Of a stretch of DNA of 64,000 nucleotides, positions 14,482 to 62,350 are shown piece by piece. Position numbers and translations under genes: made by a program. Every line of letters begins with the position of its first letter. The first letter of the stretch is position 1. Under the pieces are notes generated by a model. It was not told where the DNA came from and searched no databases. It saw only the letters and a list, made by a program, of their open reading frames with translations. The stretch lies in the NCBI GenBank assembly GCA_964584895.1, contig CAZPAW010000001.1:37936-101935 (forward strand). The letters are read 5' to 3'. The DNA comes from an uncultured Candidatus Saccharibacteria bacterium. GTDB lineage: Bacteria; Patescibacteriota; Saccharimonadia; Saccharimonadales; JAGQNJ01.

Positions 14482-14498
14482 TCAAATCTCTACTTATG

Positions 14499-14519
14499 GG
14501 AGGGGCTTAATGCCCCTCC
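14499..14519. other. Perfect 8-bp GC-rich hairpin (GGAGGGGC-TTAAT-GCCCCTCC) between the two recombinase-related ORFs
   Basis: Inverted repeat read directly; no U-tract on either strand. Confidence 0.6.
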
Positions 14520-14521
14520 GC

Positions 14522-14959: not shown

Positions 14960-15153
14960 TTCGTTAATTCCTCCGTATTTGAGTTAGTTAGTTTCTCCAA
15001 TTCTTTTTGCTGCATGTCCATCTGGATGAGCGTCTCCATAAAGTTCACTAGATTAGCCATTGCTTCCTCATCCGACTTTTGCACATCAGACTTGTTTCCG
15101 AGAAAACGACTATTACTATTAGATGCTCGTTTATTCGTTTCCGTATTACTCAT
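14956..15153 (-). CDS. Small hypothetical protein
   Basis: 65-aa ORF overlapping both neighbours by 4 nt and 8 nt, consistent with operon coupling. Confidence 0.4.
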   Translation of the reverse strand: MSNTETNKRASNSNSRFLGNKSDVQKSDEEAMANLVNFMETLIQMDMQQKELEKLTNSNTEELTK

Positions 15154-16216
15154 CAGGCTGTTCCTCTAGCCAGTAATACTTGGAGCTGCCTCGTCCTTTG
15201 GTAGGTTGTGGTAACGCTCCCTCTGCAACCCAGCGATTGAGTAGCTTGCGTAAATCATGCTCGTTGGTTGCAACACTCCGCTCCGTCAACTTTTCTAATA
15301 GGTCAATTTGTCGTAGTTGCTTATGCTCCGTTAGTAGGTCAACTACAGCAGGTAGCAAAATAGCGGATTTTTCTGGCGGTCGCCTAAAGACGCCTAGGTA
15401 TTCAAAGCTAAAGTTATCCTCGTCTACGTTGACCTTTACTTGGAAGGGGTCAAGCTCGACATCATATCGTTGCTTTTCTTGCGTAAATGTCAAATAGAAC
15501 TTTTCTTTACGACTAACGCCAACATGGCTATCAACGGCAGCTAAAATATCGCTACTTCCACGCATCTCGTTACCCGCTCCCGTGTTCATTGTTCCCATTT
15601 TGCGGTGATGTTGGGTCACAAGTATAGCTACGTCTTTTTTCGTAAAGCTCCGTAGCTTTTGAAACACCTTAGACATATCTCTGGCACTGTTTTCATCGGC
15701 ACCGTGTACTCGGATGAGGGCGTCAATAATGACCAATCCGATGTTATTCTCGGAACAAAAGTCCAGCACCTGGTCTATATGGCTATCATCGAGCTGAAAT
15801 CCTCCAAACGATGAAACATAGATAGGTAGGTCTTCGGCTGCATGTAGCTGCTTGAGACGCTTTTGCATAAGACGCTCACCATTCTCTTCGTCGATGATGA
15901 GTACGCCTGTTTTCTGTGTGTTAAATTGTCCGAAAAGCGGTTCACCTTTTGCGGCTGCGAGTGCTATTTCTAGTAATGTGTATGTTTTGAATGAGCGTGA
16001 TTGCCCCGATAGAATAGTAATAGAGGAAGCAGGTATTAGCCTGTCTACTATGTATTCTTGGTCGGGAAAATCCTTAGCCATTAGCTGGCCTATTTCTTTT
16101 ACTTCGAACATTGCTGTTCTCCTTCGATATGCGAGAGACCGACTAGCGCGAGCACCATTTAGTATTTGGTTTGCTAGAAGGTCTCTTAAAAAGTGCTCTA
16201 TCTTCACGATACGCAC
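15146..16216 (-). CDS. RepA/AAA_25-like RecA-fold ATPase with a C-terminal winged-helix-like region (probable start at 16111, RBS AAGGAG)
   Basis: ITILSGQSRSFKTYTLLEIALAAAKGEP (atypical Walker A, G-x4-FKT), VLIIDEENG (Walker B) and VTQHHRK. Confidence 0.7.
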   Translation of the reverse strand: MRIVKIEHFLRDLLANQILNGARASRSLAYRRRTAMFEVKEIGQLMAKDFPDQEYIVDRLIPASSITILSGQSRSFKTYTLLEIALAAAKGEPLFGQFNTQKTGVLIIDEENGERLMQKRLKQLHAAEDLPIYVSSFGGFQLDDSHIDQVLDFCSENNIGLVIIDALIRVHGADENSARDMSKVFQKLRSFTKKDVAILVTQHHRKMGTMNTGAGNEMRGSSDILAAVDSHVGVSRKEKFYLTFTQEKQRYDVELDPFQVKVNVDEDNFSFEYLGVFRRPPEKSAILLPAVVDLLTEHKQLRQIDLLEKLTERSVATNEHDLRKLLNRWVAEGALPQPTKGRGSSKYYWLEEQPDE

Positions 16217-16291
16217 ATACGAAGGAGATTAATTTGAGCTACGAAATGTCCCGGCCAGAGACTAGCCGTAACAGATATAAAAACTATGCAA

Positions 16292-17143
16292 TCACGAATT
16301 ATTTACGATTTTACTACTGAGTATTTTTAAGTGCTGATTAAAGTCATCTTGCTGCTCTTTGGTGAGGTTTACTTGAGGCGTAAAACGAACCCGTTTTTCA
16401 CTAATGCCGTCAAAGAAAATAGCCTTCAACTTTTTGCCAAATCCAAGATAACGAACCTGCTCACCCAAATCGTCATAGGTCGCACACCCGTTAAGGGCTT
16501 TAACATCGGCTAGAGCAACTGTTCTTTCGGTATGACTTTGTAGATAGTGCATGAAGTTGTAAAGTCCGCCGTCAAGACGAACTCTCTTTTGCAAGATTAA
16601 CTCTCCATCGGTATAGCCAACCAGCACTTTAGTGCCGTCGAACTTCACACAAGCAGTTGATGACATTTTGCTTACTTTAGGGGTACTATCTTGCGTTGGT
16701 GGTGAGTAGTTATTGTCAAGATATGGCTTTGCTGCCTCGATATACTTCTCATAATATTTAAGAAATTTGGTTAAATTAGGCTCGACTTTAAAGCCTCTAA
16801 TCATATCAATCGGGTGATTTAATCCGACGTCTTCTTTGGCCGAATCAACCTCAAAACGTCGAATAACGCCCTTGTCTCGTAGTAATTCAAGAACTTTCAA
16901 TTTACCACTTGCTATATTCATACCAAAACTTGGTATTTCACGGATATCTCCATAAAATCCATCAAACCATTGCTCTTCATCTAGCGGGTCAAATTGTGCC
17001 CAGTAGTAAGCGTTTGGGGTCTCTGCCTGTATAGTAACTGAATTGTTACTTTTCTGGCCCTGCAAGCCATCTTTAATATCTTGGAGAACCATAGCTGTTA
17101 GCATGATTTTTTCGTCAGGTTTTTCAAAAGTTTTATCGGACAT
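16292..17143 (-). CDS. Hypothetical protein, first gene of the leftward element operon
   Basis: 283-aa ORF with no motif I can recognise. Confidence 0.5.
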   Translation of the reverse strand: MSDKTFEKPDEKIMLTAMVLQDIKDGLQGQKSNNSVTIQAETPNAYYWAQFDPLDEEQWFDGFYGDIREIPSFGMNIASGKLKVLELLRDKGVIRRFEVDSAKEDVGLNHPIDMIRGFKVEPNLTKFLKYYEKYIEAAKPYLDNNYSPPTQDSTPKVSKMSSTACVKFDGTKVLVGYTDGELILQKRVRLDGGLYNFMHYLQSHTERTVALADVKALNGCATYDDLGEQVRYLGFGKKLKAIFFDGISEKRVRFTPQVNLTKEQQDDFNQHLKILSSKIVNNS

Positions 17144-17308
17144 TCTATGACCATTTTACCAATTTATTCCATATTTCTAAAAAACAGCAAAAAGTCGTAA
17201 AGTCCACAGTAAACCGACAGTTATTGCAATAAAACTTTATAATAAAAACTCCTAAAAACGACCTTTTCGCCACAACGTAATTTTGTGAAAAATACTATAT
17301 AATAAAAG

Positions 17309-17414
17309 GGCTTAAACCAATTTCAGGAAGAGTAGTATTTGCTACTTGATTTGTGTCATATAGTCGGCACTCGTCAATAAGCATTTGGACACAAATCCTG
17401 ATGTTGGTTTAAGC
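17309..17414. promoter_or_regulatory. Nested inverted-repeat region in the divergent control region of the element
   Basis: Outer GCTTAAACC (17310-17318) pairs with GGTTTAAGC (17406-17414). Inner GATTTGTGTC (17348-17357) pairs with GACACAAATC (17388-17397). There is also AGTAG/CTACT (17331-17346). Confidence 0.55.
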
Positions 17415-17483
17415 ACCTAGGCGAGTGTCGATTTTATTTGAGCTCGTTTAGGCGAATAAATTAACAGCCTAAGGAGGGCTCAA

Positions 17484-18038
17484 ATGAATACAAAAGAGAA
17501 AAAGTCAGTATTTAAGCGGTGGTGGTTCTGGGTCATTGTCGTTATCGTACTCATCGGTATCGGCGGTGCGGCAGGTGGCAACAAGGGCGATACCGCAACC
17601 AACACGGGTAGCAACGGCTCACAAGACCAAAAAGCAGAGGAAAAGACCGAGTTCAAGGTTGGCGAAACAGCGAGCTTCGATAACAAGACAATTACCGTTA
17701 CCGATGTACAACGCAACTACGATACTGGTAACCAGTTTGCTCAACCGGAGTCTGGCAAAGAGTTCGTTATTGTAACCGTTAATATCGTGAATAATAGTGA
17801 TTCTAACCTTGACTACAATACTTTTGAGTTCAAGATGCAGGACTCTAACGGCGTTCAGCAGAGTGAAGCGATTACCGCTCTTTCAGAAGGAAAGCTCAAC
17901 AGTGGCTCACTCGCCAAAGGTGGTAAAGTTACCGGCAAGCTCGCCTATGAAGTTCCGAAAGATGACGCAGGTTTGAAACTCCTGTACCAGAACTTTAGCT
18001 TCTTCGACAACAAGGCCATTACATTTAATTTGCAATAG
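17484..18038 (+). CDS. DUF4352-like membrane-anchored Ig-fold protein
   Basis: N-terminal TM helix, then FKVGETASFDNKTITVTDV ... EFVIVTVNIVNNS ... GKVTGKLAYEVPKD; RBS AAGGAGG. Confidence 0.75.
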   Translation: MNTKEKKSVFKRWWFWVIVVIVLIGIGGAAGGNKGDTATNTGSNGSQDQKAEEKTEFKVGETASFDNKTITVTDVQRNYDTGNQFAQPESGKEFVIVTVNIVNNSDSNLDYNTFEFKMQDSNGVQQSEAITALSEGKLNSGSLAKGGKVTGKLAYEVPKDDAGLKLLYQNFSFFDNKAITFNLQ

Positions 18039-18058
18039 CAGCGCAATAGCAGGAAGAA

Positions 18059-18084
18059 CACCCGCTTTGATAGGCGGGTTTTCT
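18059..18084 (+). terminator. Rho-independent terminator after the DUF4352 gene
   Basis: CCCGC-tttgatag-GCGGG followed by TTTT. Confidence 0.65.
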
Positions 18085-18130
18085 GTATCTCTATATTGAG
18101 CTGTTCTGACAAAGCAAATATTATTAACAT

Positions 18131-18439
18131 ATGAAGCCGATTCGTTCATTCCGTGCAATCTGTCGAGACTACAGACTAACTCCATTACAGACCGACACAT
18201 TACAGTCCCTCGTAGACCAGCGTAGAGGCGTCTTACATCCGTACTGGATTCAGTTGGCACTCTTTGTACCATACGACTTCGCCAAGCGTTTATATGACGA
18301 GTTAATCGAGAATGAGTGGGCGGTACCTGATGAGGTCGAAATTGACGACACTGTTTATGAGTCTGAACTAACTGATAGTGAGATAGAAATCATTGCCGGT
18401 ATTGAACTGCGAGCTAGTAGCCATTTCTCATCGCATTAA
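18131..18439 (+). CDS. Hypothetical protein (weak call)
   Basis: ORF only, no clear RBS; converges on and overlaps 18414-18647. Confidence 0.3.
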   Translation: MKPIRSFRAICRDYRLTPLQTDTLQSLVDQRRGVLHPYWIQLALFVPYDFAKRLYDELIENEWAVPDEVEIDDTVYESELTDSEIEIIAGIELRASSHFSSH

Positions 18440-18647
18440 CGAAATCTAAAAATACGGCCTTTCGATGTAGCCCGTATTTTGTATTGAGTTCCTTGGTTTT
18501 GCCTGCCGTCGCCTCGTTTATTCTATCGAGTATCGGCTGAGCAAGTGCCCTGGCTTCTTCACGAGTTATTTCACCAGTAACATAGCGACGCTTGATGTCT
18601 GCGATGTCTGTTCTGTTTTTAGTAGCTTGGTCGATTGGTGTTCCCAT
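18414..18647 (-). CDS. Hypothetical small protein (weak call)
   Basis: ORF only. Confidence 0.35.
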   Translation of the reverse strand: MGTPIDQATKNRTDIADIKRRYVTGEITREEARALAQPILDRINEATAGKTKELNTKYGLHRKAVFLDFVNAMRNGY

Positions 18648-18783
18648 AGCCTAAATATATTGTCCGAGTAAAGGTGGTTCAAGGCTCAAAATGACAGGAG
18701 ATTATCAGATAACAGCAAGCATACCTAGTAAAACTTCGGTGTAAATAGTACAATCATGACAAGCGTTTCACGCCAGACCTAAA

Positions 18784-18911
18784 CCGTATCTTATACGGCA
18801 TGGTTGAATAATCCACAAAGAGAAACAGCTCGTCATGAGTACTTCTCTTTGTGGTCATTGCTGGAAACGGCAATGGGTGGCTCTCGGGCTGCCGCTCGTG
18901 GCGGGCTTTTT
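18784..18911 (+). promoter_or_regulatory. Structured leader upstream of the surface-protein operon (four hairpins, the last followed by a T-run)
   Basis: CCGTA/TACGG (18784-18798); perfect 12-bp CCACAAAGAGAA/TTCTCTTTGTGG (18813-18854); CATTGC/GCAATG (18856-18875); GC hairpin plus TTTTT (18888-18911). Confidence 0.55.
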
Positions 18912-18959
18912 GGTTCGCTGAAACTATATAACAAAAGATACCCTAGAGGAGGCGGTACC

Positions 18960-19499
18960 ATGTCAGAAGCACACAATACAGAACAGGCAGAGGGTCAGGG
19001 TCTTGCGATTACATCACTGGTTCTCGGTATTTTAGCAATTATCACATGTCTTGTTTGGTATATCGGGATTGTGCTTGGCGTTTTAGCCATTATCTTCGGA
19101 GCAGTATCGGTCAAGAAACGAGGACGCAAGAAAGCGATTGCAGGAATTGTAACAGGTAGTATTGGTGTTATTCTGAGTCTGCTTATTATTTGGATGGTAT
19201 CGGCGGCACTACCTAGCCTACAGAAGAGTCAGCGAGACACCGCTCGCAAAAATGACATTTCAGTTTTAGTAACTGACGTATTGTCATTCCAGACGGAAAA
19301 TCGGGGGCAGCTTCCGGCTACAAATAACCTAACTACTTCCAGCCTTTCTCAAGTTACCTCCCTTGCTAGCGAGGGCGAACCGACAACCGACAAAGCCGTG
19401 TTTAAGACTGGTGTAAATTGCGACGGCGTATCGTCTGCTCGAAATTACTCAATCACTATTCTACTAGAAAACGGTTCGCCGTATTGTCAAGGTTCGTAG
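18960..19499 (+). CDS. DUF4190-like membrane anchor fused to a type IV pilin-like globular domain
   Basis: RBS AGGAGG precedes ATG 18960. TM helices are followed by LPSLQKSQRDTARKNDISVLVTDVLSFQTENRGQLP (pilin alpha1-C/alpha-beta pattern) and a C-terminal Cys...Cys pair. The ORF-track start at 18804 translates the structured leader. Confidence 0.6.
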   Translation: MSEAHNTEQAEGQGLAITSLVLGILAIITCLVWYIGIVLGVLAIIFGAVSVKKRGRKKAIAGIVTGSIGVILSLLIIWMVSAALPSLQKSQRDTARKNDISVLVTDVLSFQTENRGQLPATNNLTTSSLSQVTSLASEGEPTTDKAVFKTGVNCDGVSSARNYSITILLENGSPYCQGS

Positions 19500-19516
19500 C
19501 CAGAGGATTATGAGAG

Positions 19517-20191
19517 ATGGAACGGTTCTTTAGCGGATTAATCACAACCCTGAGTGTGCCGATACTGCTATTGAATGTGCTTGGCGGCATAGTCGGAGGT
19601 ATTTGGTTGATGATTGCTGGAGAGTGGTCGCTTTTTATCGGCGGCTTACTCTATATGATGTTTGGTGCGATGATTATCGGACTGTTGCTTATGCCTAGCA
19701 TACTTTTCGCGGCACCTGCTGCCGCTTTCGCCGAAAAGAGGAAGTACGTTCTATTCTTCATTTTCGGCTTGTTAGGTATCGCATATACTTATGGGCTTAT
19801 TGCTGTATCTACATACTACATTGCTGACATCGCACTGAGCTCTCAATCTGCTCCTCTATGGGCAAGTCTGCTGTGGCTATATGCCGTAGTGCTTGCTCCT
19901 TGGCAATATATGGCATCAAAGGAACAAGACAATACCTCAACTGGCATGACGACATTCTTCCTCGCTTTGGGAGTTTTTGCATTGATGATTTGTATCGGAG
20001 TATTTGGCATGACATTGGGTCAAGCGTTTCCTGTGCTAGTTGCGATTCTCGTCATTTCTTTGGTTATTCAGCTATTGTTTACCTATGCACTTACTCGTGC
20101 CGAGAGGCACACAAACCGACACGATGACGTTATAGATGTTGACGAACAATCAGAAGATGACAATAAGCGAACATGGGGAGATTTGGAGTAA
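19517..20191 (+). CDS. Polytopic membrane protein (about 6 TM) ending in WGDLE
   Basis: Hydrophobic segments throughout, with an acidic C-terminal tail ...DDNKRTWGDLE. Confidence 0.6.
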   Translation: MERFFSGLITTLSVPILLLNVLGGIVGGIWLMIAGEWSLFIGGLLYMMFGAMIIGLLLMPSILFAAPAAAFAEKRKYVLFFIFGLLGIAYTYGLIAVSTYYIADIALSSQSAPLWASLLWLYAVVLAPWQYMASKEQDNTSTGMTTFFLALGVFALMICIGVFGMTLGQAFPVLVAILVISLVIQLLFTYALTRAERHTNRHDDVIDVDEQSEDDNKRTWGDLE

Positions 20192-20583
20192 TGAGTAAAC
20201 AACAAAAACGAAGCCTAAAGCTGCCGATATTTTTGATTATAGGACCAGCTCTCGGACTAATACTATCAATTATTCTATACGCGATAATTAATTTTATCGT
20301 TGCAAGCTCTATGCCAGATATTTCATCTTCCCCTAGTATTTCGGAGGGTGCGAGTATCGCACAGGGTGCTGATGAGCAAGACTTATACGGTAGTGACGAT
20401 GGCTCTATGTTTCGGACTATATCAAATATCCTGCTATTCTTGCTTGGTGCTGGGAGCATGTTGGCATTTGTACCGTGTCTTGTGGTTGGTATAATCATGC
20501 TCAATAAACGCCGTAACTCGCAAATAGATGATACGCCTACGGTACGGAGTAGGGAGTCACGGGACTGGGGAGATTTAGAGTAG
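20191..20583 (+). CDS. Two-TM membrane protein ending in WGDLE
   Basis: Starts at MSKQQKRS (TAATG overlap with the upstream stop); tail ...RSRESRDWGDLE. Confidence 0.55.
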   Translation: MSKQQKRSLKLPIFLIIGPALGLILSIILYAIINFIVASSMPDISSSPSISEGASIAQGADEQDLYGSDDGSMFRTISNILLFLLGAGSMLAFVPCLVVGIIMLNKRRNSQIDDTPTVRSRESRDWGDLE

Positions 20584-21401
20584 TGCAACTTCCACATTCA
20601 AACGCTCGTCAAAACTATATAGACCAAATTAAAGTCGTCGAGGCAAATCTCAGAGACGCTACATCTGGCGAGAAAGATAATGCGCTACTTGCTCAAGTTC
20701 AGAAACGGCTTGATTCTCTAGCTGAAAAATATCAATATAGTGAAGAAATCGGTGCGGCGAAGTATAAACTCTATGAATTACAGGCATTAGTTCATTATTT
20801 CAATGGGCATGATGACGATGCGCTTGATTTTATCAATCAGGCAATAGAAACTCGCGGCGAAACATATGCAAAAGCGGAAAAACTCAAAAAGCAATTATCA
20901 CTCGGTGATTCTTATGTCACGAAAACTACTAATCCTGACAAAATGACAAAAGAACAGCGACGCAAGCAAAAAATTGGACTTGAGGGCTGGCTGGCACTAT
21001 TTACTGTTGGCGTAATCTTATCTGTAATCCTTTACCTAATAGCGGCTGGATTGTGGCTTTATAACCTCGGTAATTTAAGTAATACAGCAGACGACTTTGC
21101 GGCGGGCTTATTGAGCCCTTATTATTCATTTTTGATGATTAGCTCATTTGTCATGGCTTCTTTAGCGGCTTGGTTGCTATTCCTGCTCTTCAAATGGAAA
21201 CGCTTGGCGCGATGGATTGGTATTGTTCTGCTTTCGCTATCAATACTAATATCGTTTATTGACTACATGTGGTACTCAGACCTAACGACCCAGCTAACTG
21301 GACTTGACCCACAAACAGGCAATTCAGGTGTTCTCTGGGCTGTCGTTTGGATAATCTATCTCTGTGTATCAAAGCGTGTAAAAAGGACGCTCACAAAATG
21401 A
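20583..21401 (+). CDS. Helical/TPR-like N-terminal domain fused to a DUF2569-like 4-TM domain
   Basis: GTG start overlaps the upstream TAG; GLEGWLALFTVGVILS and the following TM helices. Confidence 0.55.
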   Translation: MQLPHSNARQNYIDQIKVVEANLRDATSGEKDNALLAQVQKRLDSLAEKYQYSEEIGAAKYKLYELQALVHYFNGHDDDALDFINQAIETRGETYAKAEKLKKQLSLGDSYVTKTTNPDKMTKEQRRKQKIGLEGWLALFTVGVILSVILYLIAAGLWLYNLGNLSNTADDFAAGLLSPYYSFLMISSFVMASLAAWLLFLLFKWKRLARWIGIVLLSLSILISFIDYMWYSDLTTQLTGLDPQTGNSGVLWAVVWIIYLCVSKRVKRTLTK

Positions 21402-21772
21402 GCGAGCGTAAAGAAGATTACTCATGGCTATATATCGGGATTGCGGTGCTTATTGGCGGTGCGATTTTGTACTTTCTCTTTTTGCCGCCTAGCTCTGGTT
21501 CTGTAACGGTAAAATATCGTGATGACAAAGTAAATATTTCGGCTACTAACTTTGAGCCGCTCAATAAATCGGATTCAACCGTCAAGGGCGCATGGTACGA
21601 CAGCAGCAATGAATACATGGTCATCAAGCTCGGTAGTACCTATTATCATTACTGCGGTATGCCGAGTAGTGTATGGGGCGGCCTAAAGGCTGCTTCATCG
21701 CCATATGAATATTATCAAGACGATGTAAAAGGTAATTTCGACTGTCGAGTTAATCCTGTACCGAGCTATTAG
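21398..21772 (+). CDS. Membrane-anchored KTSC-domain protein
   Basis: ATGA overlap with the upstream gene. VKGAWYDSSNEYMVIKLGSTYYHYCGMPSSVWGGLKAASSPYEYY fits the KTSC domain pattern. Confidence 0.65.
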   Translation: MSERKEDYSWLYIGIAVLIGGAILYFLFLPPSSGSVTVKYRDDKVNISATNFEPLNKSDSTVKGAWYDSSNEYMVIKLGSTYYHYCGMPSSVWGGLKAASSPYEYYQDDVKGNFDCRVNPVPSY

Positions 21773-21774
21773 TT

Positions 21775-22089
21775 ATGAAAAATATGATTTCTATCAATAA
21801 ATATCTATTAGCCAGTTTGATTGTTGCTACGTTAGCTGCTGGTAGCTACGCAGGTTTTTACTATACAAATCAACATTACCAAAACAAAGAAGCGAGAGAG
21901 CTAAGCCAAGAGGCTGAAACTGACCAGAAGAATCTGATATGTGAGGCACGAGTTCAACGTGGCAAGACGGGTGACGTTAAAAGCGACTACTTTATTTTTG
22001 AACGAAGTGCGAAGCAAGAAGATTGTGAGCGGTTTATTGAATACAAAAATATTCCAGATGATACCGAGGGCTATTGGATGGGGTTTTAG
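21775..22089 (+). CDS. Small membrane-anchored hypothetical protein
   Basis: N-terminal TM helix (LLASLIVATLAAGSYAGFYY). Confidence 0.5.
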   Translation: MKNMISINKYLLASLIVATLAAGSYAGFYYTNQHYQNKEARELSQEAETDQKNLICEARVQRGKTGDVKSDYFIFERSAKQEDCERFIEYKNIPDDTEGYWMGF

Positions 22090-22101
22090 GAGTAGAGGCG
22101 T

Positions 22102-22995
22102 ATGAATAATAAAGAACTTGAACAAAACAAAGCAGCGAAAGAACCGAGTAAGCTCCGTCGTATTCTTTACGGATTTTCATGGTCAATTATTTTCCCAATT
22201 ATTATTGCGGTGCCGTCTTTCATTATTATGCTGATGATACTTAGTCAAATCCTGACCTCCAACGTCAATAATCAAGACTTTAGTAACACTCTAGCAACTG
22301 ACGGTATATTTTATCTTGAACTATATCTCTTTATCTTCGTTACGGTGCTTGTAGCTGTTCTATTCCTCGCTAAATGGCTACTTCGTACCCGTAAACGATT
22401 GTTTTTCCGTAGTGGGGCGAAAGTACTTGGTGTCTATATTTGGGTTGGTATTTTTGCTACTGGCCTGACGATGGCACTCATTACAAAAAATCCCGACGCC
22501 ATTAAACCACCCGCCGAACAAAACGCACAGCTTATGCAAGTTATCGCAGATGTCGGTGGTGATACAGCTAAGTTAAAAGATGTATCAGTGAAGTATGTTG
22601 CTGACTACAAAGATGGTTTCAAGAATCAGGCGGGCGAATACGCATCTTACGATGACAGCAAAGGCAACTTCTCGTATGGTGTTATGACTGTTAAACAAGG
22701 GCTTGACCCAGAAGAAGAAAAAATAGTTGTTGCTCATGAGTATCTACACCATGTATGGGAAGCGGAGCTTGACCCCGCTACATTGCACGACTTGACGAGC
22801 CAACTGATGACACTTTATGGCAAGGACGACTGGTTCAAGACAAGAGTAGCCACTTATTCGGATACGAACATGCTATTACCGACAGAGTTATTTGCTTTTT
22901 ATTGCACCGAGTCATCAGACCAGTATTTGACACCATACGTTATTGACGAATGTAACAAACACATAAACCGTGATGCGCTGCGATTTATACGCTAA
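22102..22995 (+). CDS. Membrane-anchored putative zinc metallopeptidase (HExxH)
   Basis: Three to four N-terminal TM helices and VVAHEYLHHVWE (HEYLH). Confidence 0.6.
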   Translation: MNNKELEQNKAAKEPSKLRRILYGFSWSIIFPIIIAVPSFIIMLMILSQILTSNVNNQDFSNTLATDGIFYLELYLFIFVTVLVAVLFLAKWLLRTRKRLFFRSGAKVLGVYIWVGIFATGLTMALITKNPDAIKPPAEQNAQLMQVIADVGGDTAKLKDVSVKYVADYKDGFKNQAGEYASYDDSKGNFSYGVMTVKQGLDPEEEKIVVAHEYLHHVWEAELDPATLHDLTSQLMTLYGKDDWFKTRVATYSDTNMLLPTELFAFYCTESSDQYLTPYVIDECNKHINRDALRFIR

Positions 22996-23013
22996 TCGTA
23001 TACTAATTTATAT

Positions 23014-23886
23014 ATGGATGACGAACATTTAACTGCACTCTACAGCCAAATGATGGACGAATGGTTCAGCTCATTAAGGGTTGGCGATAAAGTCTATAAC
23101 TACAGCGATGACAGACCAGATAAAGGCATGGTCAGAAAGCTGCGTGAAGGAGTTATCAAAGAAATCCATGATAATGGCAGGTATGACCGCTACGTTATCG
23201 TCGATAACCTAACGACAGGTAGACAAAACAAATGGGGCGACTATGCTCTGGTAAGACCACCAGAGATTGAGGCAGTGTCTGAAAAGTTGACTCAACTACA
23301 TACGGTTGATGAAGCTGATTTATTGCAAAAACCAGAGAGAATAGAAAAGACCGTCGATGAAAAAGCGGCACAGGCAGACTATGAGTGGCTTCTCGAAAGT
23401 GCTAAAGAGTTACTGAAAAATGAAGATGTGCAACTAGGTAAATGTAGCGGCATATACGGGGCATTTAATAAGAAGACTGGCGAGTGTATCTACATCGGTA
23501 AATCACGCTCTTCAATTGCTACCCGTTGGCGTGAACACGCTCGGTTCTGGAAAAAGCTACGACCAATTCACAGGCAACCACTCCTGACGCAATACCTGCA
23601 TTTTTTCAGCGACCAAATCGAGTGGAAGGTGCTGCTCCCTGTTGCAAGTGATGTAGATAACGACCTACTCGAATACAGCGAGCGACGCCTTTTTGAAAAG
23701 TACCAGCCGATTGCAAACTCTATCGTGCCAAACGGCACATTCTACGGCAGGAGCGTTATGGAGGGCGAAGGCGATTCTATCTCGGTGTCAGAGTGGAATC
23801 CTCGTATGGTTGAAATCAGAATACGCAAAGGTCAGTTCAATGGTTTCTCTGATGGTAAATCTCACTTCGATAACGAGTTAGATTAA
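23014..23886 (+). CDS. GIY-YIG nuclease-domain protein with an unknown ~150-aa N-terminal domain
   Basis: CSGIYGAFNKKTGECIYIGKSRSSIATRWREH and a downstream Glu (LEYSERRLFEKYQP). Confidence 0.7.
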   Translation: MDDEHLTALYSQMMDEWFSSLRVGDKVYNYSDDRPDKGMVRKLREGVIKEIHDNGRYDRYVIVDNLTTGRQNKWGDYALVRPPEIEAVSEKLTQLHTVDEADLLQKPERIEKTVDEKAAQADYEWLLESAKELLKNEDVQLGKCSGIYGAFNKKTGECIYIGKSRSSIATRWREHARFWKKLRPIHRQPLLTQYLHFFSDQIEWKVLLPVASDVDNDLLEYSERRLFEKYQPIANSIVPNGTFYGRSVMEGEGDSISVSEWNPRMVEIRIRKGQFNGFSDGKSHFDNELD

Positions 23887-23994
23887 AAACGCAAAACCTA
23901 CTCCTATATAAGTAATTCGTTTTCTCGTTTTTTGCTTTGGTAGTCAAACCGTTTATTTTAGGGTTAAAAGTCATGGGCAGTATAATGAAATTAG

Positions 23995-24894
23995 ATGCCG
24001 ATATATACCAGAGTAATGCCTGAAAACTTGAGAGAATCAGTCGCTCATTTTGAGAGTCTAATTATTGATATTGAAAAAGAGATGGACGGTGCGAGTGTGC
24101 CAAATGGTGATTCCACTCGATGGCACATAGCCTCGACGTCGCTTTACCTCGCAACACAACATGCCAGAGCAATATGTATACTGGTGCAACGCCACGATAA
24201 TGAAGCTGCTGGATTACATTTACGAGCATTATTTGAAGTTTATATTCGACTGGTGTATATGCTGTCAAAGGCTAATAATTCACGCTTATTGGCAGTCCTA
24301 TACGCCGACGCTGTAAGCTACGAGCGATACAGCAAAGATGTAAAGAAAGTAAACCTAGACGCATACGAGTCAGTACCGAATGAAGTACAAGACCGCTTAA
24401 ACCAGCTCAATGCTAGGATTGAAGTGCATATCAAGGACACGATACAACAAGAGAAAATATATCGTAAGCAATTAACAGACATGGACCACACAGAGTTCTT
24501 AGACGATAAAAATAAGCTCAAGTCGGGCGATAGCATAAGTCGGCACCTCTCTATAAAGTATATGTGCAGATGTCTCCAAGACGTTGATGGACAGAACTTG
24601 CTAAAAGAATATGCCTCAATTTACAGCAACTTGTCGATGTACGCTCATACAAGCACTGTGTATTTAGCGAAAATGGTTCACAGACAGCCAAACGGTAATA
24701 TCCGAATCGGCACAGTGTCTGGTGAAGAAAATGAAGAAGTCTCCATACGCAATGTCGCCACGGCACATCATTACCTGGCGGGAGTTATTTTGCAGTGTTT
24801 GCGTGAGAAGGGACTGTCGCAAACAGAGCTAGAGGATAGACTAAATAGCTTAGAGAATAGCAAAAGTAAATATGATGAATTTCTAACGGTTTAG
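23995..24894 (+). CDS. All-helical hypothetical protein (possibly DUF5677-like); near-leaderless
   Basis: LHLRALFEVYIRLVYM ... YSNLSMYAHTS pattern; TATAAT (23981-23986) lies 8 nt before the ATG. Confidence 0.45.
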   Translation: MPIYTRVMPENLRESVAHFESLIIDIEKEMDGASVPNGDSTRWHIASTSLYLATQHARAICILVQRHDNEAAGLHLRALFEVYIRLVYMLSKANNSRLLAVLYADAVSYERYSKDVKKVNLDAYESVPNEVQDRLNQLNARIEVHIKDTIQQEKIYRKQLTDMDHTEFLDDKNKLKSGDSISRHLSIKYMCRCLQDVDGQNLLKEYASIYSNLSMYAHTSTVYLAKMVHRQPNGNIRIGTVSGEENEEVSIRNVATAHHYLAGVILQCLREKGLSQTELEDRLNSLENSKSKYDEFLTV

Positions 24895-25009
24895 AATTAT
24901 TACGCTAAACCGAGTTCTCCTAGCCCACTACCTAGATATTGTCGTGCTAGCCTGATTTCTCTAGATATGCTAATAATAGAGCGGTAATGTTGCTTTCGGA
25001 ATACTTCCA

Positions 25010-38263: not shown

Positions 38264-38647
38264 CTATTTTTTCTTTTCTAGTTTGTCCAAACGAAGCCAC
38301 CTATACACGGAATAAATAATGATTGCGGTAATTACAAAGTTGATTAATACAAATACAAATTGTCCCCACGCAAAAACTGCATTATTACTACCAATAGTTA
38401 ACGTAAACTTTTGAGCACTTAGATTTGCGCCACTGCCAAGCATAAGGCCAAGCAAAGGATTAATAAAACTAGCGTTTAAGGTATCGACAAGTACTTTGGC
38501 TTGCGTACCGATAATAAAACCTATAGCTAGACCGACCACACCTTGTGTGCGTAAAAACTCAACAAATCCGCTAAACTCAGCCTTGCTTTTAGCTCGAGCC
38601 TTAGACGCAACTGATCTTCTGGGCTTTTTAGGTTTAACGTTATTCAT
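38264..38647 (-). CDS. mscL: Large-conductance mechanosensitive channel
   Basis: FVEFLRTQGVVGLAIGFIIGTQAKVLVDTLNASFINPLLG. Confidence 0.88.
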   Translation of the reverse strand: MNNVKPKKPRRSVASKARAKSKAEFSGFVEFLRTQGVVGLAIGFIIGTQAKVLVDTLNASFINPLLGLMLGSGANLSAQKFTLTIGSNNAVFAWGQFVFVLINFVITAIIIYSVYRWLRLDKLEKKK

Positions 38648-38651
38648 CGTT

Positions 38652-39077
38652 CTATTGCCAAACAGCTAATATTGCACCCATAATCCCAAGTGCAACCACA
38701 TCTCCTCCTAGCGTTAGCACCGAATAACCTAGAGGACGCATCTCAAACTGAGCCATCATTAATTTATTAGTAGCCAAAATACCAACGGCAACCATAATCC
38801 CCAACGAAGCACCCTGTAACGCTGTCGATAGATCTAAAACCATCACCAATACACCAAGCGCAACTGCCGAGACTAGTGTTGCGATGAATGATAATCCCAT
38901 TGTTTTTGGCATATTAGCTTTTGCGGTATCCTTACGGGTTAAGCCAACCATCTTCATCCACATCTTTCCAAAAACTGGTTCAGCATACCATACGGCACCT
39001 GACGCAAAGGCAGCCATTGATGCTACCACAACAGCTAACCAATTCAGCTCGTTAATATAATCTAGTAACACTTGCAT
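38652..39077 (-). CDS. DUF1761-like membrane protein
   Basis: NWLAVVVASMAAFASGAVWYAEPVFGKMWMKMVG. Confidence 0.6.
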   Translation of the reverse strand: MQVLLDYINELNWLAVVVASMAAFASGAVWYAEPVFGKMWMKMVGLTRKDTAKANMPKTMGLSFIATLVSAVALGVLVMVLDLSTALQGASLGIMVAVGILATNKLMMAQFEMRPLGYSVLTLGGDVVALGIMGAILAVWQ

Positions 39078-41993: not shown

Positions 41994-42677
41994 TTAAATC
42001 TTAGTTTCTCCGCTAAGCACGTGTGCCAATTGATAAATAATCGTATAGGTAACACTCAGGACCGCAAAAAATGTCAACGTAATTACATACGTTTCCATAT
42101 GAATGATTGGGTTAACAATGCGTTCTGAGATATCAAATAGTAGCCCAAAAGGATTAAACAATATATCCCATGTATTCCATCGCAAATATCTACCTAAATA
42201 GATAGCAAAACTAGAAGCTAAAAAGACTAATTGAATAATCATCCAGGATTGATGCCTTGTCATTCTTGGGCGTAGTTGTGAATGAACAATATATACACTT
42301 AGGTAGCCTAGAATTAACCCGTTAATAATAAAACTCATTACCATAGCAATATCAAATAATATAATCGTATCGCCAGAACTTTGTAGATGTATCAGGTCGG
42401 TAATCAAATAAAAACTATTTGGCAAAAATCCTAACCAGAAGGCAAATAATATGATGCTTTGCCATGATAAAAATGGATTCTTAAAGAGGCGAATTCTTAA
42501 TCCTAAGGCAAAAATCAACGGAACCCACGCTAACACCAAATTCCATGATAAAAACCAATAATTATAGTTACCCGCAACAATAATTCTAGCAACTAGCATA
42601 ATAATGCTGAGAAGCGATGAAATAAACAGAGTTACTAAAACTCGTGACGTAAATGGAATTCTGATTTTTTTGCTCAT
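41994..42677 (-). CDS. DUF1361-like polytopic membrane protein
   Basis: WFLSWNLVLAWVPLIFAL motif; about 6 TM helices. Confidence 0.6.
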   Translation of the reverse strand: MSKKIRIPFTSRVLVTLFISSLLSIIMLVARIIVAGNYNYWFLSWNLVLAWVPLIFALGLRIRLFKNPFLSWQSIILFAFWLGFLPNSFYLITDLIHLQSSGDTIILFDIAMVMSFIINGLILGYLSVYIVHSQLRPRMTRHQSWMIIQLVFLASSFAIYLGRYLRWNTWDILFNPFGLLFDISERIVNPIIHMETYVITLTFFAVLSVTYTIIYQLAHVLSGETKI

Positions 42678-42690
42678 AACTAGGTGTTAG

Positions 42691-42740
42691 TATACTCGTT
42701 TTTATTCTGAGTTACAGCGTACGCCTAAGTCGAGTATAAT
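42691..42740 (+). promoter_or_regulatory. Promoter of the lipid operon with an 8-bp inverted repeat (TATACTCG ... CGAGTATA) overlapping the TATAAT
   Basis: Inverted repeat at 42691-42698 and 42731-42738; TATAAT at 42735-42740; the second ATG at 42748 lies 7 nt downstream, implying a leaderless start. Confidence 0.5.
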
Positions 42741-43371
42741 GCTTTGTATGGATGAAATTATTGATAGCGTTGGCAATTCAGTCCGAACATTGATGCGAAA
42801 CCTGGCTAAATTAATAAATAAAATTAGTAATGGAAGAATAACCCCTGACTTCATAACCTACACGAGTCTTTTTGCTCACCTGCCAATTGCCTATTTAATC
42901 GCAATAGGTAATTTTATGTGGGCAGGAATCTTGCTTATAGTATTTGGGCTATTTGATGCTCTTGACGGCGAGCTTGCACGGCTACAAAAGGCCGACAGTC
43001 CACGCGGAATGGTTCTAGATGCCAGCACTGATCGAATCAAAGAAAGCCTATTATATATTGGGGTTGCCTATTTTTTTGTTCAGAATAATTTAGAAATTTT
43101 TGCGGTATGGGCTGTTGCCGTTTGTGCAGGGGCACTCCTAGTTAGTTACATCAAGGCTAAGGCAGAAACAGCTATAAAAGATAAAAACTTATCAGCTAAT
43201 CAAATCAACCGATTATTTAAAAGTGGCCTCATGCGATATGAAATCAGAATGTTAGTATTGATAATTGGCCTACTTTTTAATGTTTTACAGGGCACAGTAG
43301 TTATACTTGCAATAACCACTTGGTTCACTGCCCTATTAAGATTAGTAAAGATATTACCTAAGCTCAAATAG
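42739..43371 (+). CDS. CDP-alcohol phosphatidyltransferase family protein (likely start 42748)
   Basis: DALDGELAR...G...D...D signature (FDALDGELARLQK...GMVLDASTDRIKE). Confidence 0.85.
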   Translation: MLCMDEIIDSVGNSVRTLMRNLAKLINKISNGRITPDFITYTSLFAHLPIAYLIAIGNFMWAGILLIVFGLFDALDGELARLQKADSPRGMVLDASTDRIKESLLYIGVAYFFVQNNLEIFAVWAVAVCAGALLVSYIKAKAETAIKDKNLSANQINRLFKSGLMRYEIRMLVLIIGLLFNVLQGTVVILAITTWFTALLRLVKILPKLK

Positions 43372-43372
43372 T

Positions 43373-44038
43373 ATGTATAAAGTCGACCTACACACACACT
43401 CAACCGCTAGCCCCGATGGCGGAATTAGTATAGATCAGTACATACATATTATTGGGGAAGGACTCCTTGATTTTGTCGCTGTAACAGATCATAACACTAC
43501 AAAAAATGCGCGCGCACTAAAAGCAAGTTTAGGCGACAAAATAATTGTCGGCGAAGAAATTACCTGTAAAGAGGGTGAAATTATTGGTCTCTTTTTATCA
43601 GAAACAATAAAGCCAGGTTTACACGCCAATGAAGCTGCGAAGCAAATCAAAAAACAAGGTGGGTTAGTATACATCCCCCACCCTTTTGAAACTGTCAGAA
43701 AAGGTCTACCAGTCAGCGTTCTAGATTCAATCAAAGACTATATTGATATTGTAGAGGTATATAATGGCCGCGCACTTGTTCAAAACAAAGGTCCTGAAGC
43801 TAGCGTATGGGCCCGAGTTAATCAAAAAGTTACAGCAGCCAGTAGCGATGCTCACGGTCAAAAGGGACTTGCAACTGCATATTCATTACTAAAAAATGCA
43901 CCGACAGTATATAACCTAGTTGAACAATTAAATTTCGGACACATGAAAATGAACCGTCCTCCACTCAAAACTATGCTCTACCCAAAAGCCCATCGAATTA
44001 GACAAAAATTTTATAAACTACGGAATAAACGTTCATGA
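43373..44038 (+). CDS. PHP-domain metal-dependent phosphoesterase
   Basis: VDLHTHSTASPDG ... VTDHN ... IPHPF. Confidence 0.8.
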   Translation: MYKVDLHTHSTASPDGGISIDQYIHIIGEGLLDFVAVTDHNTTKNARALKASLGDKIIVGEEITCKEGEIIGLFLSETIKPGLHANEAAKQIKKQGGLVYIPHPFETVRKGLPVSVLDSIKDYIDIVEVYNGRALVQNKGPEASVWARVNQKVTAASSDAHGQKGLATAYSLLKNAPTVYNLVEQLNFGHMKMNRPPLKTMLYPKAHRIRQKFYKLRNKRS

Positions 44039-44583
44039 ATCAGTTATTGTTCGTGTTGTGGTTTTTCTTGCCAGCAGGTATTGCTAACGCTTCGCCAACT
44101 TGGGCAAATAAAATCCCCGGTATAAACAAGCTGAATACACCATTAGATTTTGGTAAGAGTATTAATAATAGACGCATTTTTGGTGATAACAAAAGATGGC
44201 GAGGCCTTATCTTTGGCACATTATTTGGTGCACTGACCGGTTATATACAGTTTTTAATATACCCAGAATTTATTCAAGAACTTGGGATAGCTTCATCTAA
44301 TCCAGCCATCACAATGACACTTCTTGGTGGCCTACTCGGCTTAGGCGCCCTACTTGGCGATGCGGTTGAAAGTTTTTTCAAACGCCGATCACAAGTAAAA
44401 CCTGGCGAAAGTTGGTTTCCTTATGATCAAATTGACTTTATTATCGGCGGTATTATCCTTACAATGCCAATCGTTATTTTATATTTAACAACCTACCTAC
44501 TCATTCTAATAGTTTGGTTTGGCCTTCACCTTATAGCCGGCTACATAGGATATCTTCTAAACCTAAAAGACAAACCGATCTAG
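44035..44583 (+). CDS. carS: CDP-archaeol synthase (CarS/DUF46) homologue
   Basis: PLDFGKSINNRRIFGDNKRWRG, GDAVESFFKRR and a C-terminal YLLNLKDKPI align with my recollection of archaeal CarS (PIDFGK..GKRILGDGKTWRG, GDL.GSFIKRR, YRLNLKEVPW). Confidence 0.75.
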   Translation: MNQLLFVLWFFLPAGIANASPTWANKIPGINKLNTPLDFGKSINNRRIFGDNKRWRGLIFGTLFGALTGYIQFLIYPEFIQELGIASSNPAITMTLLGGLLGLGALLGDAVESFFKRRSQVKPGESWFPYDQIDFIIGGIILTMPIVILYLTTYLLILIVWFGLHLIAGYIGYLLNLKDKPI

Positions 44584-44684: not shown

Positions 44685-45116
44685 ATGAAACGACCGGAAC
44701 TGATAGAAATGCATGGCCATGAAGAAACAATAAGACGAGCTGATGACGGATTGCGTGTTGTTCTAGATAAACCTGAGTCTCCAGTTAATGCCCAACCGCA
44801 AAAATATGGTGAAACAACTCTCTATCAAGGAGGGGTAGTATCGAGCACAGACGACTCACCCGCTGTGAGAGCAAGAATAGAAGATCAAGGAGATAGAACT
44901 TTGACATATGCTGCCGTTAACAGTGGTGTGGGTAAATATGCTACAGAACATGAAACTGTAGGTACTACTGATGCTGTTGGATGGGCAAATGTAGATCGCC
45001 GACTTCCAGAAGGCGGAAGCTATAAACATGTTTTTGGTCCTGATTCAGCAGCAAAGGCAACAGCTTTGGTAACTAAACTTGCTGGCAAGAAAATTGATAA
45101 CAAACGTAATCAGTAA
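44685..45116 (+). CDS. Orphan protein (143 aa)
   Basis: ORF behind promoter P5; RBS AAAGGA. Confidence 0.6.
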   Translation: MKRPELIEMHGHEETIRRADDGLRVVLDKPESPVNAQPQKYGETTLYQGGVVSSTDDSPAVRARIEDQGDRTLTYAAVNSGVGKYATEHETVGTTDAVGWANVDRRLPEGGSYKHVFGPDSAAKATALVTKLAGKKIDNKRNQ

Positions 45117-61061: not shown

Positions 61062-61496
61062 TTGCTTGTGCTTGCAAATATTCTATCAACGCGTGATCTG
61101 TCCAATAATGCCGTCGACATTTGGACTTTTAATGAATATAACGCTGAAACCATTCTTGCCGAGGTGCCGATTCAAGAGTTGGGTAGATTAGTGGTTTGGT
61201 TTGGTCAGAAAATACTAACACCCAGAGAAATTACAATGATGAAAAGATCTCACTCGACAGTCGATTTAAATTTAGGGTCAGATTTAGCCTTAGCTACCAA
61301 CACCAGATTTCTCCTTGGGGCAAGCCAAAGACAAAAAGGTGATGATAATCCTTTAACTACTGCTCTAATTGAAAGATCTAAGCCTAGCCGAGATCTAGGT
61401 CACGGAGGTAATGAACAGTGGTTATTCCCCTTGAAATCTCTCGAACTTGGTGTAATCACTAGCGAAGAGTTTTTAGAGGAAGGGTCCTCTGTTTAA
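61062..61496 (+). CDS. Hypothetical protein (weak; non-ATG start in the track)
   Basis: ORF only; its 3' end overlaps the convergent gene by 4 nt. Confidence 0.3.
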   Translation: MLVLANILSTRDLSNNAVDIWTFNEYNAETILAEVPIQELGRLVVWFGQKILTPREITMMKRSHSTVDLNLGSDLALATNTRFLLGASQRQKGDDNPLTTALIERSKPSRDLGHGGNEQWLFPLKSLELGVITSEEFLEEGSSV

Positions 61497-62350
61497 TACT
61501 CTAGGACTTGTTTGACGCGTTCTACGCTGTCTGAAGCTCGATAATCATCAAACCAAAGAACTTTCCAGTCCATGCGTTCTGCGGCCATTAGATTGGCTCT
61601 AGTGTCGTCTATTAGCAGTATTTCACTCGGTTTCACGCCAGCTTTTTCTTCGGCTAGATCATAAATCTTTTTCTCAGGTTTTATTGCATGCACCTCAGAG
61701 CTATCGATAATTACATCGTAGTCAATATTTGGAATAATCCCACTCTCGAGTAATCTATCAATCACCCCTGGCATGCTGTTACTACAGAGTCCAACTTTGT
61801 AATGTTCATGTGCCCATTGCACTAACTCATGCATTTCTTTTATCGGATCAACAGCCTCAAGGTAATATTCTTGCCAAGCGACATTGTCTTTGCCAAGCTG
61901 ATTAGCTAGTATATTGTTAAATTCGTCCATGCTAATCTCGCCCCTGTTAATTTCGTCATTATAACGCCAAAAAACCGACTCAATCTTCTCTAGCGACACA
62001 CCTGATTCAGATGCCAACCGCGTAAATGCCCTGTGAAAAAACCGCACCAAGCATCCGTTAATGTCAAAATAGACAAATCTGATTCCACTTTTAGAAATCT
62101 TTTTCTCAACCACCCCTCCAATTTGTCGCCCAAGCAGACTATCAACCGATACTCCAATAACATCGGCGATTTTCTCAACCGTAAAGACTGACGGCGATTT
62201 AATAGCTCCTCGCTCGATTTTTGCTAATGTTGAATACGACAAATCAGCTTTATCGCACAAATCTTGTTGAGTTAAGCCAGCTTTTTGACGTGCCTCTTGC
62301 AAACGTTTACCAAACTTCTCAACTACTTGCTTTTCACCCACATTATCCAT
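61493..62350 (-). CDS. XRE-family HTH domain fused to a HAD-like hydrolase domain
   Basis: FGKRLQEARQKAGLTQQDLCDKADLSYSTLAKIERG, then FVYFDINGCLV ... LLIDDTRANL. Confidence 0.75.
   Translation of the reverse strand: MDNVGEKQVVEKFGKRLQEARQKAGLTQQDLCDKADLSYSTLAKIERGAIKSPSVFTVEKIADVIGVSVDSLLGRQIGGVVEKKISKSGIRFVYFDINGCLVRFFHRAFTRLASESGVSLEKIESVFWRYNDEINRGEISMDEFNNILANQLGKDNVAWQEYYLEAVDPIKEMHELVQWAHEHYKVGLCSNSMPGVIDRLLESGIIPNIDYDVIIDSSEVHAIKPEKKIYDLAEEKAGVKPSEILLIDDTRANLMAAERMDWKVLWFDDYRASDSVERVKQVLEY

Follow-up and report, generated by a model that had tools for sequence, protein, structure and literature searches.

How do bacteria that lack fatty-acid synthesis and live attached to host bacteria, as Saccharibacteria and other Patescibacteria do, build and tailor their membranes? 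This question is raised by three adjoining genes in a 64,000-nucleotide stretch of contig CAZPAW010000001.1 from an uncultured Candidatus Saccharibacteria bacterium, called here the window. The genes encode a CDP-alcohol phosphatidyltransferase, a PHP-family phosphoesterase and a CarS-family membrane cytidylyltransferase. We propose that they offer a concrete way, in three enzyme steps, to turn scavenged lipid into an inositol phospholipid. Specifically, the cluster is probably a head-group activation and attachment module that makes phosphatidylinositol (PI) from scavenged or pre-formed lipid.

Three co-directional genes form an operon

Gene 1 (42748-43371, plus strand) encodes the transferase, a protein of 207 amino acids (aa) that matches the Pfam family CDP-OH_P_transf (PF01066) at 2e-14. 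Gene 2 (43373-44038, plus strand) encodes a soluble PHP-family phosphoesterase of 221 aa, recognized by its PHP fold and invariant putative metal-ligand residues, and gene 3 (44035-44583, plus strand) encodes the CarS-family (PF01864) cytidylyltransferase of 182 aa, assigned by both Pfam and NCBIfam. In the raw sequence, the TAG of gene 1 (43369-43371) is followed by a 1-nt spacer and the ATG of gene 2 at 43373, while the ATGA at 44035-44038 makes a 4-nt overlap between genes 2 and 3. An earlier note on this DNA, made from the sequence alone, had described a three-gene set with just such a gap and overlap; coordinates and domains agree with it, and the operon organization of the three co-directional genes is confirmed in this Saccharibacteria window. 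No terminator was predicted 3' of the CarS gene in the window. The open reading frame (ORF) that comes next, 44685-45116 (143 aa), is unconserved. We considered it as a fourth operon member and rejected it, as it has its own promoter-like site and Shine-Dalgarno sequence and only the closest relative has the ORF.

The transferase resembles enzymes that use inositol-1-phosphate

Scored against NCBIfam, the gene 1 product ranks highest on archaetidylinositol-phosphate synthase (AIPS, 98.2 bits), followed by phosphatidylinositol-phosphate (PIP) synthase (PIPS, 84.8), the Bacteroides PIPS BT_1523 (62), IPCT/DIPPS (48) and PgsA (17). The four top-scoring models all describe enzymes with L-myo-inositol-1-phosphate as acceptor. 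This ranking recurs in all 56 family members, of which 17 reach PgsA, weakly. The best PDB matches are the PIPS of Mycobacterium and Renibacterium (MtPIPS and RsPIPS). The DxxDGxxAR...GxxxDxxxD signature is complete (D73-A-L-D76-G77-E-L-A80-R81 ... G90-M-V-L-D94-A-S-T-D98; residue numbers follow the ORF that starts at 42739), and across the 56 sequences D73, D76, G77, A80, G90, D94 and D98 are invariant and R81 nearly so.

Clarke et al. (PMC4634129) showed by mutagenesis that R153 and R191 of RsPIPS (R155 and R195 of MtPIPS) bind the phosphate of inositol phosphate; all PIP synthases have kept this arginine pair, and S132 and K135 of MtPIPS contribute too. In an L-INS-i alignment, S136, K139, R170 and R201 of the window transferase correspond to RsPIPS S130, K133, R153 and R191, and a profile alignment independently sets R201 on MtPIPS R195. 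R170 and R201 are both invariant in the 56 sequences. Because model ranking, closest structures, ligand residues and signature agree, inositol-1-phosphate is the best-supported acceptor predicted for the gene 1 product. Such an acceptor would yield a phosphorylated product, which would explain the presence of a phosphatase gene in the operon.

The three genes are linked beyond shared synteny

With the CarS-like protein as query, a scan of GTDB that took a single genome for each species gave 80 loci, almost all labelled Saccharibacteria or Saccharimonadia, in which the best CarS-like matches reach 84-85% identity; the source of the window is a Saccharibacterium. When the window proteins were run against these loci with tblastn and the ORFs were delimited, the transferase-PHP-CarS order appeared on one strand in 62 of the 80, with CarS identity going down to 42% and a median distance of -4 nt at both junctions. 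Most loci also have ArgRS and a divergent DUF1361 gene on the upstream side and PGI on the downstream side, and such shared flanks, taken alone, could reflect block synteny within one phylum. However, the trio also persists beside unrelated flanking genes (L025, L028, L039, L062 and L080), indicating that the linkage exceeds inherited synteny. The earlier note had made its reading depend on whether the trio is syntenic in related genomes; the order is kept in most loci, different flanks included.

Rearranged loci add to this picture. In L040 and L050 an AIPS-like transferase gene on the minus strand precedes PHP and CarS genes on the plus strand; with the AIPS model this transferase reaches 154-157 bits, and it has the ERTERL and QR motifs. 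Transferase and CarS are fused into single polypeptides of 330-353 aa in P0324 (Nomurabacteria, L087:5001-5993), P0356 and P0387, with an N-terminal CDP-alcohol transferase domain that scores best on AIPS/PIPS and a C-terminal CarS-like domain. Five other Patescibacteria loci (L043, L052, L068, L074 and L079) show the arrangement diacylglycerol kinase (minus), CarS (plus), transferase (minus), where the kinase is a DAGK_cat/YegS-type lipid kinase and the transferase is of a second type with ambiguous head-group class (AIPS 47 bits, PgsA 39 bits). Together, the fusions, the kinase clusters and the L040/L050 order argue that the transferase uses the CarS-like product and that the PHP gene travels with both genes, and the kinase clusters make diacylglycerol-derived phosphatidate a plausible input of the CarS-like enzyme. 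CarS also stands alone, adjoining DUF1361, at L067:6001-6522. In the window, tblastn found no PIG-L, diacylglycerol kinase, second transferase or PgsA-HAD gene.

The CarS-like proteins form a clade separate from sampled archaeal CarS

The gene 3 product matches the CarS-like family PF01864 at 1.8e-35 (122.9 bits, Pfam cut-off 22) and barely passes the NCBIfam CarS equivalog (NF003114; 148.5 bits, cut-off 148). A profile built from 55 relatives has a single PDB match, the archaeal ApCarS (5GUF), at 1.8e-21 over residues 2-176. D38, G50, K53, D109, S113, K116, R117, D131, Q132, D134 and H165 are identical in ApCarS, and public records already label these CarS-like proteins 'CDP-archaeol synthase'. 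An exhaustive profile search returned 2,814 cluster representatives at E <= 1e-3, including labelled examples from Nomurabacteria and Kaiserbacteria at about 155-166 bits, a spread that makes the CarS-like family Patescibacteria-wide.

We compared 134 Patescibacteria with 119 archaeal CarS sequences in a neighbour-joining tree, which split the Patescibacteria cleanly from the sampled archaeal CarS (84/100 bootstraps, 32% mean identity between groups); being distance-based and unrooted, with both samples biased by retrieval, the tree speaks to distinctness and not to origin. By sequence, then, these proteins belong to a large clade that spans the Patescibacteria and lies outside the sampled archaeal CarS. 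The description of gene 3 as an archaeal-type CarS homologue stands as to the full-length family match and the ApCarS polar core, and falls as to membership of the sampled archaeal clade. A literature search found nothing on bacterial CarS function.

Gene neighbourhoods were also viewed at two archaeal CarS loci, from Pyrolobus and a Verstraetearchaeota archaeon (L085:758-4498 and L086:291-4483). There, the neighbours of CarS are AcnX and UbiD-like genes, which belong to the archaeal mevalonate pathway, and no transferase or PHP gene adjoins it. As a separate observation, CarS in both loci overlaps an upstream gene of 214-223 aa, which is KaiC/RecA-like in L086 and matches no family in L085.

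Gene 2 encodes a PHP-fold protein with a polybasic tail

The gene 2 product scores 24.7 bits on Pfam PHP (PF02811), just below the 26.4-bit cut-off, and matches the NCBIfam 'CehA/McbA metallohydrolase' domain at 9e-16. Two independent alignments, of 63 and 64 sequences, show no variation at residues H7, H9, D15, H40, E62, H103, D159 and H161, which from general knowledge of the PHP family we take to be the metal ligands. An AlphaFold2 model built from 64 sequences, with homologues taken from databases, has a pLDDT of 88.4 and a pTM of 0.84, and Foldseek matches it at probability 1.0 to BVU_3505, the RNase AM PHP domain and TM0559 (TM-score 0.67). The modelled structure thus confirms a PHP barrel fold for the gene 2 protein.

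The protein has no transmembrane or hydrophobic segment. Instead, it ends in a polybasic tail with a net charge of +9, preceded by a conserved LYPK motif. We take the tail for a membrane-surface anchor, though nucleic acid could equally be what it binds. Members of this subfamily measure 215-221 aa and lack the extra C-terminal domain of the RNase AM/TrpH proteins of about 290 aa.

What points to a lipid substrate is gene position. A phosphatase gene between two lipid enzyme genes fits a phosphorylated lipid product, and on this ground we tentatively put the gene 2 product forward as a candidate PIP phosphatase, an assignment about which we are less confident than about the module as a whole. 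The enzyme that dephosphorylates PIP has been reported as unidentified in Actinobacteria and Archaea (PMC4634129, PMC9246714, PMC9385802), and a literature search found nothing on a PHP-type PIP phosphatase.

A proposed route from phosphatidic acid to phosphatidylinositol

In the pathway that we propose, substrates, products and the order of steps are inferred, and gene structure, protein families, conserved residues, synteny and fusions are the observations behind them. The CarS-family enzyme would first convert cytidine triphosphate and phosphatidic acid, the latter obtained from the host or made from diacylglycerol, into CDP-diacylglycerol (CDP-DAG) and pyrophosphate. The PIPS/AIPS-like transferase would then move the phosphatidyl group to L-myo-inositol-1-phosphate, giving PIP and cytidine monophosphate (CMP). 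Finally, the PHP metallo-phosphoesterase, which its polybasic tail would keep on the anionic surface of the membrane, would take the phosphate off PIP to leave PI. All three enzymes would be made from one leaderless mRNA starting from the TATAAT 7 nt upstream of the first ATG, with translation coupled through the 1-nt gap and the 4-nt overlap. Need for outside lipid is consistent with the account of Starr et al. 2018 (PMC6031116), according to which Saccharibacteria cannot make fatty acids.

The earlier note had suggested a scheme of CDP-activation, head-group transfer and dephosphorylation, and every element of it is compatible with our findings, the activities themselves being predictions. 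Activation of a scavenged lipid by the CarS homologue would suit its family and neighbours; attachment of a head group by the CDP-alcohol transferase remains apt and can be narrowed to a predicted inositol-1-phosphate; and removal of a phosphate from the transferase product by the PHP protein would agree with operon position. That the CarS-clade enzyme acts on phosphatidic acid is an assumption that we judge more likely right than wrong, with the neighbouring diacylglycerol kinase genes lending indirect support.

Several observations weigh against this pathway. Purified AfCarS, an archaeal enzyme, strongly prefers digeranylgeranylglyceryl phosphate (DGGGP) over phosphatidic acid and fails to complement E. 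coli cdsA (PMC9385802), so that a shift of specificity must be assumed for the Patescibacteria clade. The gene 1 product falls far short of the AIPS (180 bits) and PIPS (170 bits) equivalog cut-offs, and is a divergent lineage relative to these equivalogs. No synthase for myo-inositol-1-phosphate (MIPS) was found with Pfam among the 41 window ORFs scanned, and the available portion (about 80%) of the annotation table of Starr et al. contains no INO1 entry; the same portion lists two SuhB-type genes. In structure, the PHP protein comes closest to phosphoesterases that act on nucleotides or RNA and to uncharacterized proteins, with no lipid phosphatase among them, and L034 (5348-6522) and L046 (5342-6522) have a PHP-CarS pair but no transferase. 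Moreover, transposon-sequencing tables for Southlakia, a cultured oral Saccharibacterium, have no CarS, DUF1361 or matching PHP entry and list only a PgsA-like transferase, which is non-essential. Since Southlakia seems to be without it, the module is apparently not universal in Saccharibacteria.

Alternative explanations

Of the competing explanations, the one that survives best concerns the PHP protein, which might support the cytidylyltransferase step, through pyrophosphate hydrolysis or recycling of CMP or other nucleotides, or might be an unrelated RNase-AM-like passenger; PIP would then be dephosphorylated by another enzyme, or never. Because the PHP-CarS pair persists without the transferase (in L072 as well as in L034 and L046), the PHP protein could serve the CarS step instead. 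Its nearest characterized relatives, RNase AM and the family to which Cv1693, a 3',5'-bisphosphate nucleotidase, belongs, act on nucleotides or RNA, and binding of nucleic acid by the polybasic tail would fit the same explanation. However, in more than 60 genomes the PHP gene lies between and overlaps two lipid genes, and it follows the AIPS-like transferase into the rearranged cluster of L040 and L050. A PIP-synthase pathway needs a phosphatase and the cluster holds no other candidate, and the short subfamily lacks the C-terminal domain of the RNase AM/TrpH proteins. We therefore consider this explanation unlikely.

Alternatively, the module could make phosphatidylglycerol, with the transferase using glycerol-3-phosphate to form phosphatidylglycerol phosphate (PGP) and the PHP protein acting as PGP phosphatase. 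Like PIP, PGP needs a dedicated phosphatase; the lack of an inositol-phosphate synthase in the window ORFs and the available Starr table fits this proposal; and in one Patescibacteria locus (L073) a PgsA-HAD phosphatase fusion adjoins a CarS-like gene. The transferases themselves speak otherwise, as all 56 score best on models of inositol-1-phosphate enzymes, with PgsA reached weakly by 17, and the arginine pair specific to PIPS is invariant. In addition, Saccharibacteria carry a separate PgsA-like gene, according to the Starr reconstruction and the Southlakia tables. A phosphatidylglycerol product is thus quite improbable, more so than a nucleotide-directed role of the PHP protein.

Two readings invoke archaeal lipids. 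In its strong form, the first holds that Patescibacteria use CarS and the AIP (archaetidylinositol phosphate) synthase lineage on isoprenoid, ether or mixed lipids, with the PHP protein as PIP/AIP phosphatase, and we give it very little credence; in a weaker form, the parts of which are far more likely, the CarS lineage may have come across the 'lipid divide' and now work on diacyl lipid, again with the PHP protein as PIP/AIP phosphatase. The second, a true archaeal-type pathway in which CarS makes CDP-archaeol from an isoprenoid ether lipid and the transferase makes archaetidylinositol phosphate, giving archaeal-like inositol lipids, is the least probable of all: the best curated models are archaeal for two of the three proteins (CarS, 148.5 bits with a cut-off of 148; AIPS, 98 bits, up to 157 in L050) and the ApCarS polar core is conserved, but the 119 archaeal CarS sampled fall outside the Patescibacteria clade, mevalonate-pathway genes adjoin both archaeal CarS genes examined and not those of Patescibacteria, diacylglycerol kinase pairs with the CarS gene in other Patescibacteria loci, no synthase for geranylgeranylglyceryl phosphate (GGGP) or DGGGP was found among the scanned window ORFs or the recurring gene families of the 80 loci, and the known hosts of Saccharibacteria are bacteria (general knowledge, and PMC6031116).

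The operon has a probable, conserved leaderless start

A sigma-70-type promoter precedes gene 1 on the plus strand (42711-42740), consisting of GTTACA, an 18-nt spacer and TATAAT (42735-42740), with 10 of 12 consensus matches. From the end of the TATAAT (42740), 7 nt lead to the ATG at 42748, and no Shine-Dalgarno sequence is found there. We asked how this spacing fares in relatives: in 52 of 62 homologous operons a -10 box (TATAAT, TATACT or TATATT) stops 5-9 nt short of the start codon, and in 25 of these the distance is exactly 7 nt. The corresponding background for random ATGs is 3%, or perhaps about 10% in truth, given that the count allowed several candidate starts per locus. A Shine-Dalgarno-like motif is present in just 2 of the 52 operons with the conserved -10 box, and gene calls made independently on identical contigs adopt the start that gives 207 aa. 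The conserved spacing, the scarcity of Shine-Dalgarno motifs and the agreement of the gene calls make a predicted leaderless start at 42748, also favoured by the earlier note, well supported. The ORF list gives a longer, in-frame alternative for gene 1 (42739-43371). We rejected the start at 42739; that ATG overlaps the TATAAT, and the conserved distance from -10 box to ATG and the independent gene calls point to 42748.

The TATAAT had also been described as embedded in an 8-bp inverted repeat. The repeat exists and is perfect, pairing TATACTCG (42691-42698) with CGAGTATA (42731-42738), and a repeat of this length was reached in 2 of 200 shuffles. The right arm falls within the TATAAT promoter region, and the left arm, read on the minus strand as CGAGTATACT, holds the TATACT -10-like box of the DUF1361 gene, 13 nt before its ATG at 42677. 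However, the repeat is missing from the two closest relatives (L001 and L002), and where L005, L024, L051 and L057 have comparable repeats, these too consist of two opposed -10 boxes. An operator function was rejected on these grounds, and we conclude that the repeat is an unconserved by-product of two back-to-back promoters and not a conserved regulatory element.

Neighbouring genes and other features of the window

The gene on the other side of this 70-nt promoter region, which it shares with gene 1, encodes a DUF1361 membrane protein (41994-42677, minus strand; PF07099, 1e-36). DUF1361 lies upstream of the operon in 54 of the 80 loci, always divergent, and it is possible that the protein is an accessory component of the same lipid module.

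In 28 of the 80 loci, a PIG-L/MshB-like de-N-acetylase gene (PF02585, 1e-31) lies tail-to-tail with the CarS gene, for example at L003:6542-7279, L034:6503-7240 and L007:1124-1864 (all minus strand), often followed by genes for a cupin mannose-6-phosphate isomerase and PGI. The deacetylase could process an N-acetylglucosamine (GlcNAc)-inositol lipid made from the operon's PI, or the adjacency could be mere synteny. In the window, which lacks the deacetylase gene, its place is taken by the unconserved ORF at 44685-45116.

Elsewhere in the window, the Rfam LOOT RNA motif (RF03000) is found at 18776-18893 on the plus strand (76.3 bits, gathering score 46.4, full model length), overlapping the beginning of an ORF with a TTG start codon (18804-19499). 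The region from about 12270 to 24900 has a G+C content of 0.41-0.45, as against about 0.37-0.39 nearby, and holds genes for a large serine recombinase (12937-14481), AAA_25 (15146-16216), GIY-YIG (23014-23886) and DUF5677 (23995-24894) proteins, together with several ORFs that match no family; the region resembles an integrated mobile element or the remnant of a prophage. The protein encoded at 61493-62350 (minus strand) unusually joins an HTH_3 (Cro/C1-type) DNA-binding domain, at its N-terminus, to a HAD hydrolase domain, and an LssY_C-domain protein (4e-67) is encoded at 2715-3518 (minus strand). Gene calls on the identical contig L081 place MscL at 38264-38647 and DUF1761 at 38652-39077, both on the minus strand.

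Comparison with known systems

The operon has a published counterpart. Starr et al. 2018 (PMC6031116) reconstructed, for the soil Saccharibacterium 'Candidatus Teamsevenus rhizospherense', a route from phosphatidic acid of scavenged lipid through CDP-DAG to PI and PI-mannosides. Three consecutive genes in their supplementary table constitute the same operon, in orthologous form: 1165 (186 aa; K00981, phosphatidate cytidylyltransferase), 1166 (215 aa; COG0613, the PHP family) and 1167 (210 aa; K17884, manually named PI synthase). Two of the three gene roles were thus published there. In the portions of that work available to us, the PHP gene is labelled COG0613 only and given no role, the cytidylyltransferase is not described as CarS-type and the PIP intermediate is not mentioned, and on this basis the PHP step and the substitution of CarS for CdsA are the new parts.

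The mycobacterial and actinobacterial PI pathway, with CdsA, the PIP synthase PgsA1 and an unidentified PIP phosphatase, uses the same two-step chemistry via PIP. The window transferase has the signature motif and the four inositol-phosphate ligands in common with MtPIPS and RsPIPS, but its identity to actinobacterial PIPS is low, with 85 bits against an equivalog cut-off of 170. Unlike the actinobacterial pathway, the window operon would draw its CDP-DAG from a CarS-family enzyme instead of CdsA, and it encodes a PHP phosphatase candidate. The small PHP enzyme is a testable candidate for the PIP phosphatase step.

In Bacteroides thetaiotaomicron, PIPS (BT_1523) and PIP phosphatase (BT_1525) genes are clustered, as in the window, and the BT_1523 PIPS model is matched by all 56 members of the window transferase family. 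However, the Bacteroides cluster includes a MIPS gene (BT_1526), whereas the window cluster has none and includes a CDP-lipid synthase instead. BT_1525, deletion of which is reported to cause PIP accumulation, is a PgpA-family protein (PMC9246714). Given this published description, the PHP fold of the window candidate and the absence of any PgpA-family match to it in Pfam or NCBIfam, the PHP protein falls outside the BT_1525 family. In what would be a bacterial PI pathway of the PIP-synthase type, two steps appear to rely on non-orthologous enzymes, with CdsA replaced by a CarS-type enzyme and a PgpA-type phosphatase by a PHP protein. The genes are common in Patescibacteria.

Finally, the window proteins resemble enzymes of archaeal lipid synthesis. 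Gene 3 shares PF01864, a similar length and conserved polar residues with archaeal CarS (AfCarS; ApCarS, PDB 5GUF), and the transferase scores best on the model of the archaeal archaetidylinositol-phosphate synthase. In contrast to archaeal CarS, the Patescibacteria proteins form a separate clade in another gene neighbourhood, and their predicted substrate is diacyl phosphatidic acid, against which AfCarS discriminates (PMC9385802). That a CarS clade apparently does the work of CdsA is relevant to the strictness of the split between archaeal and bacterial lipid enzymes.

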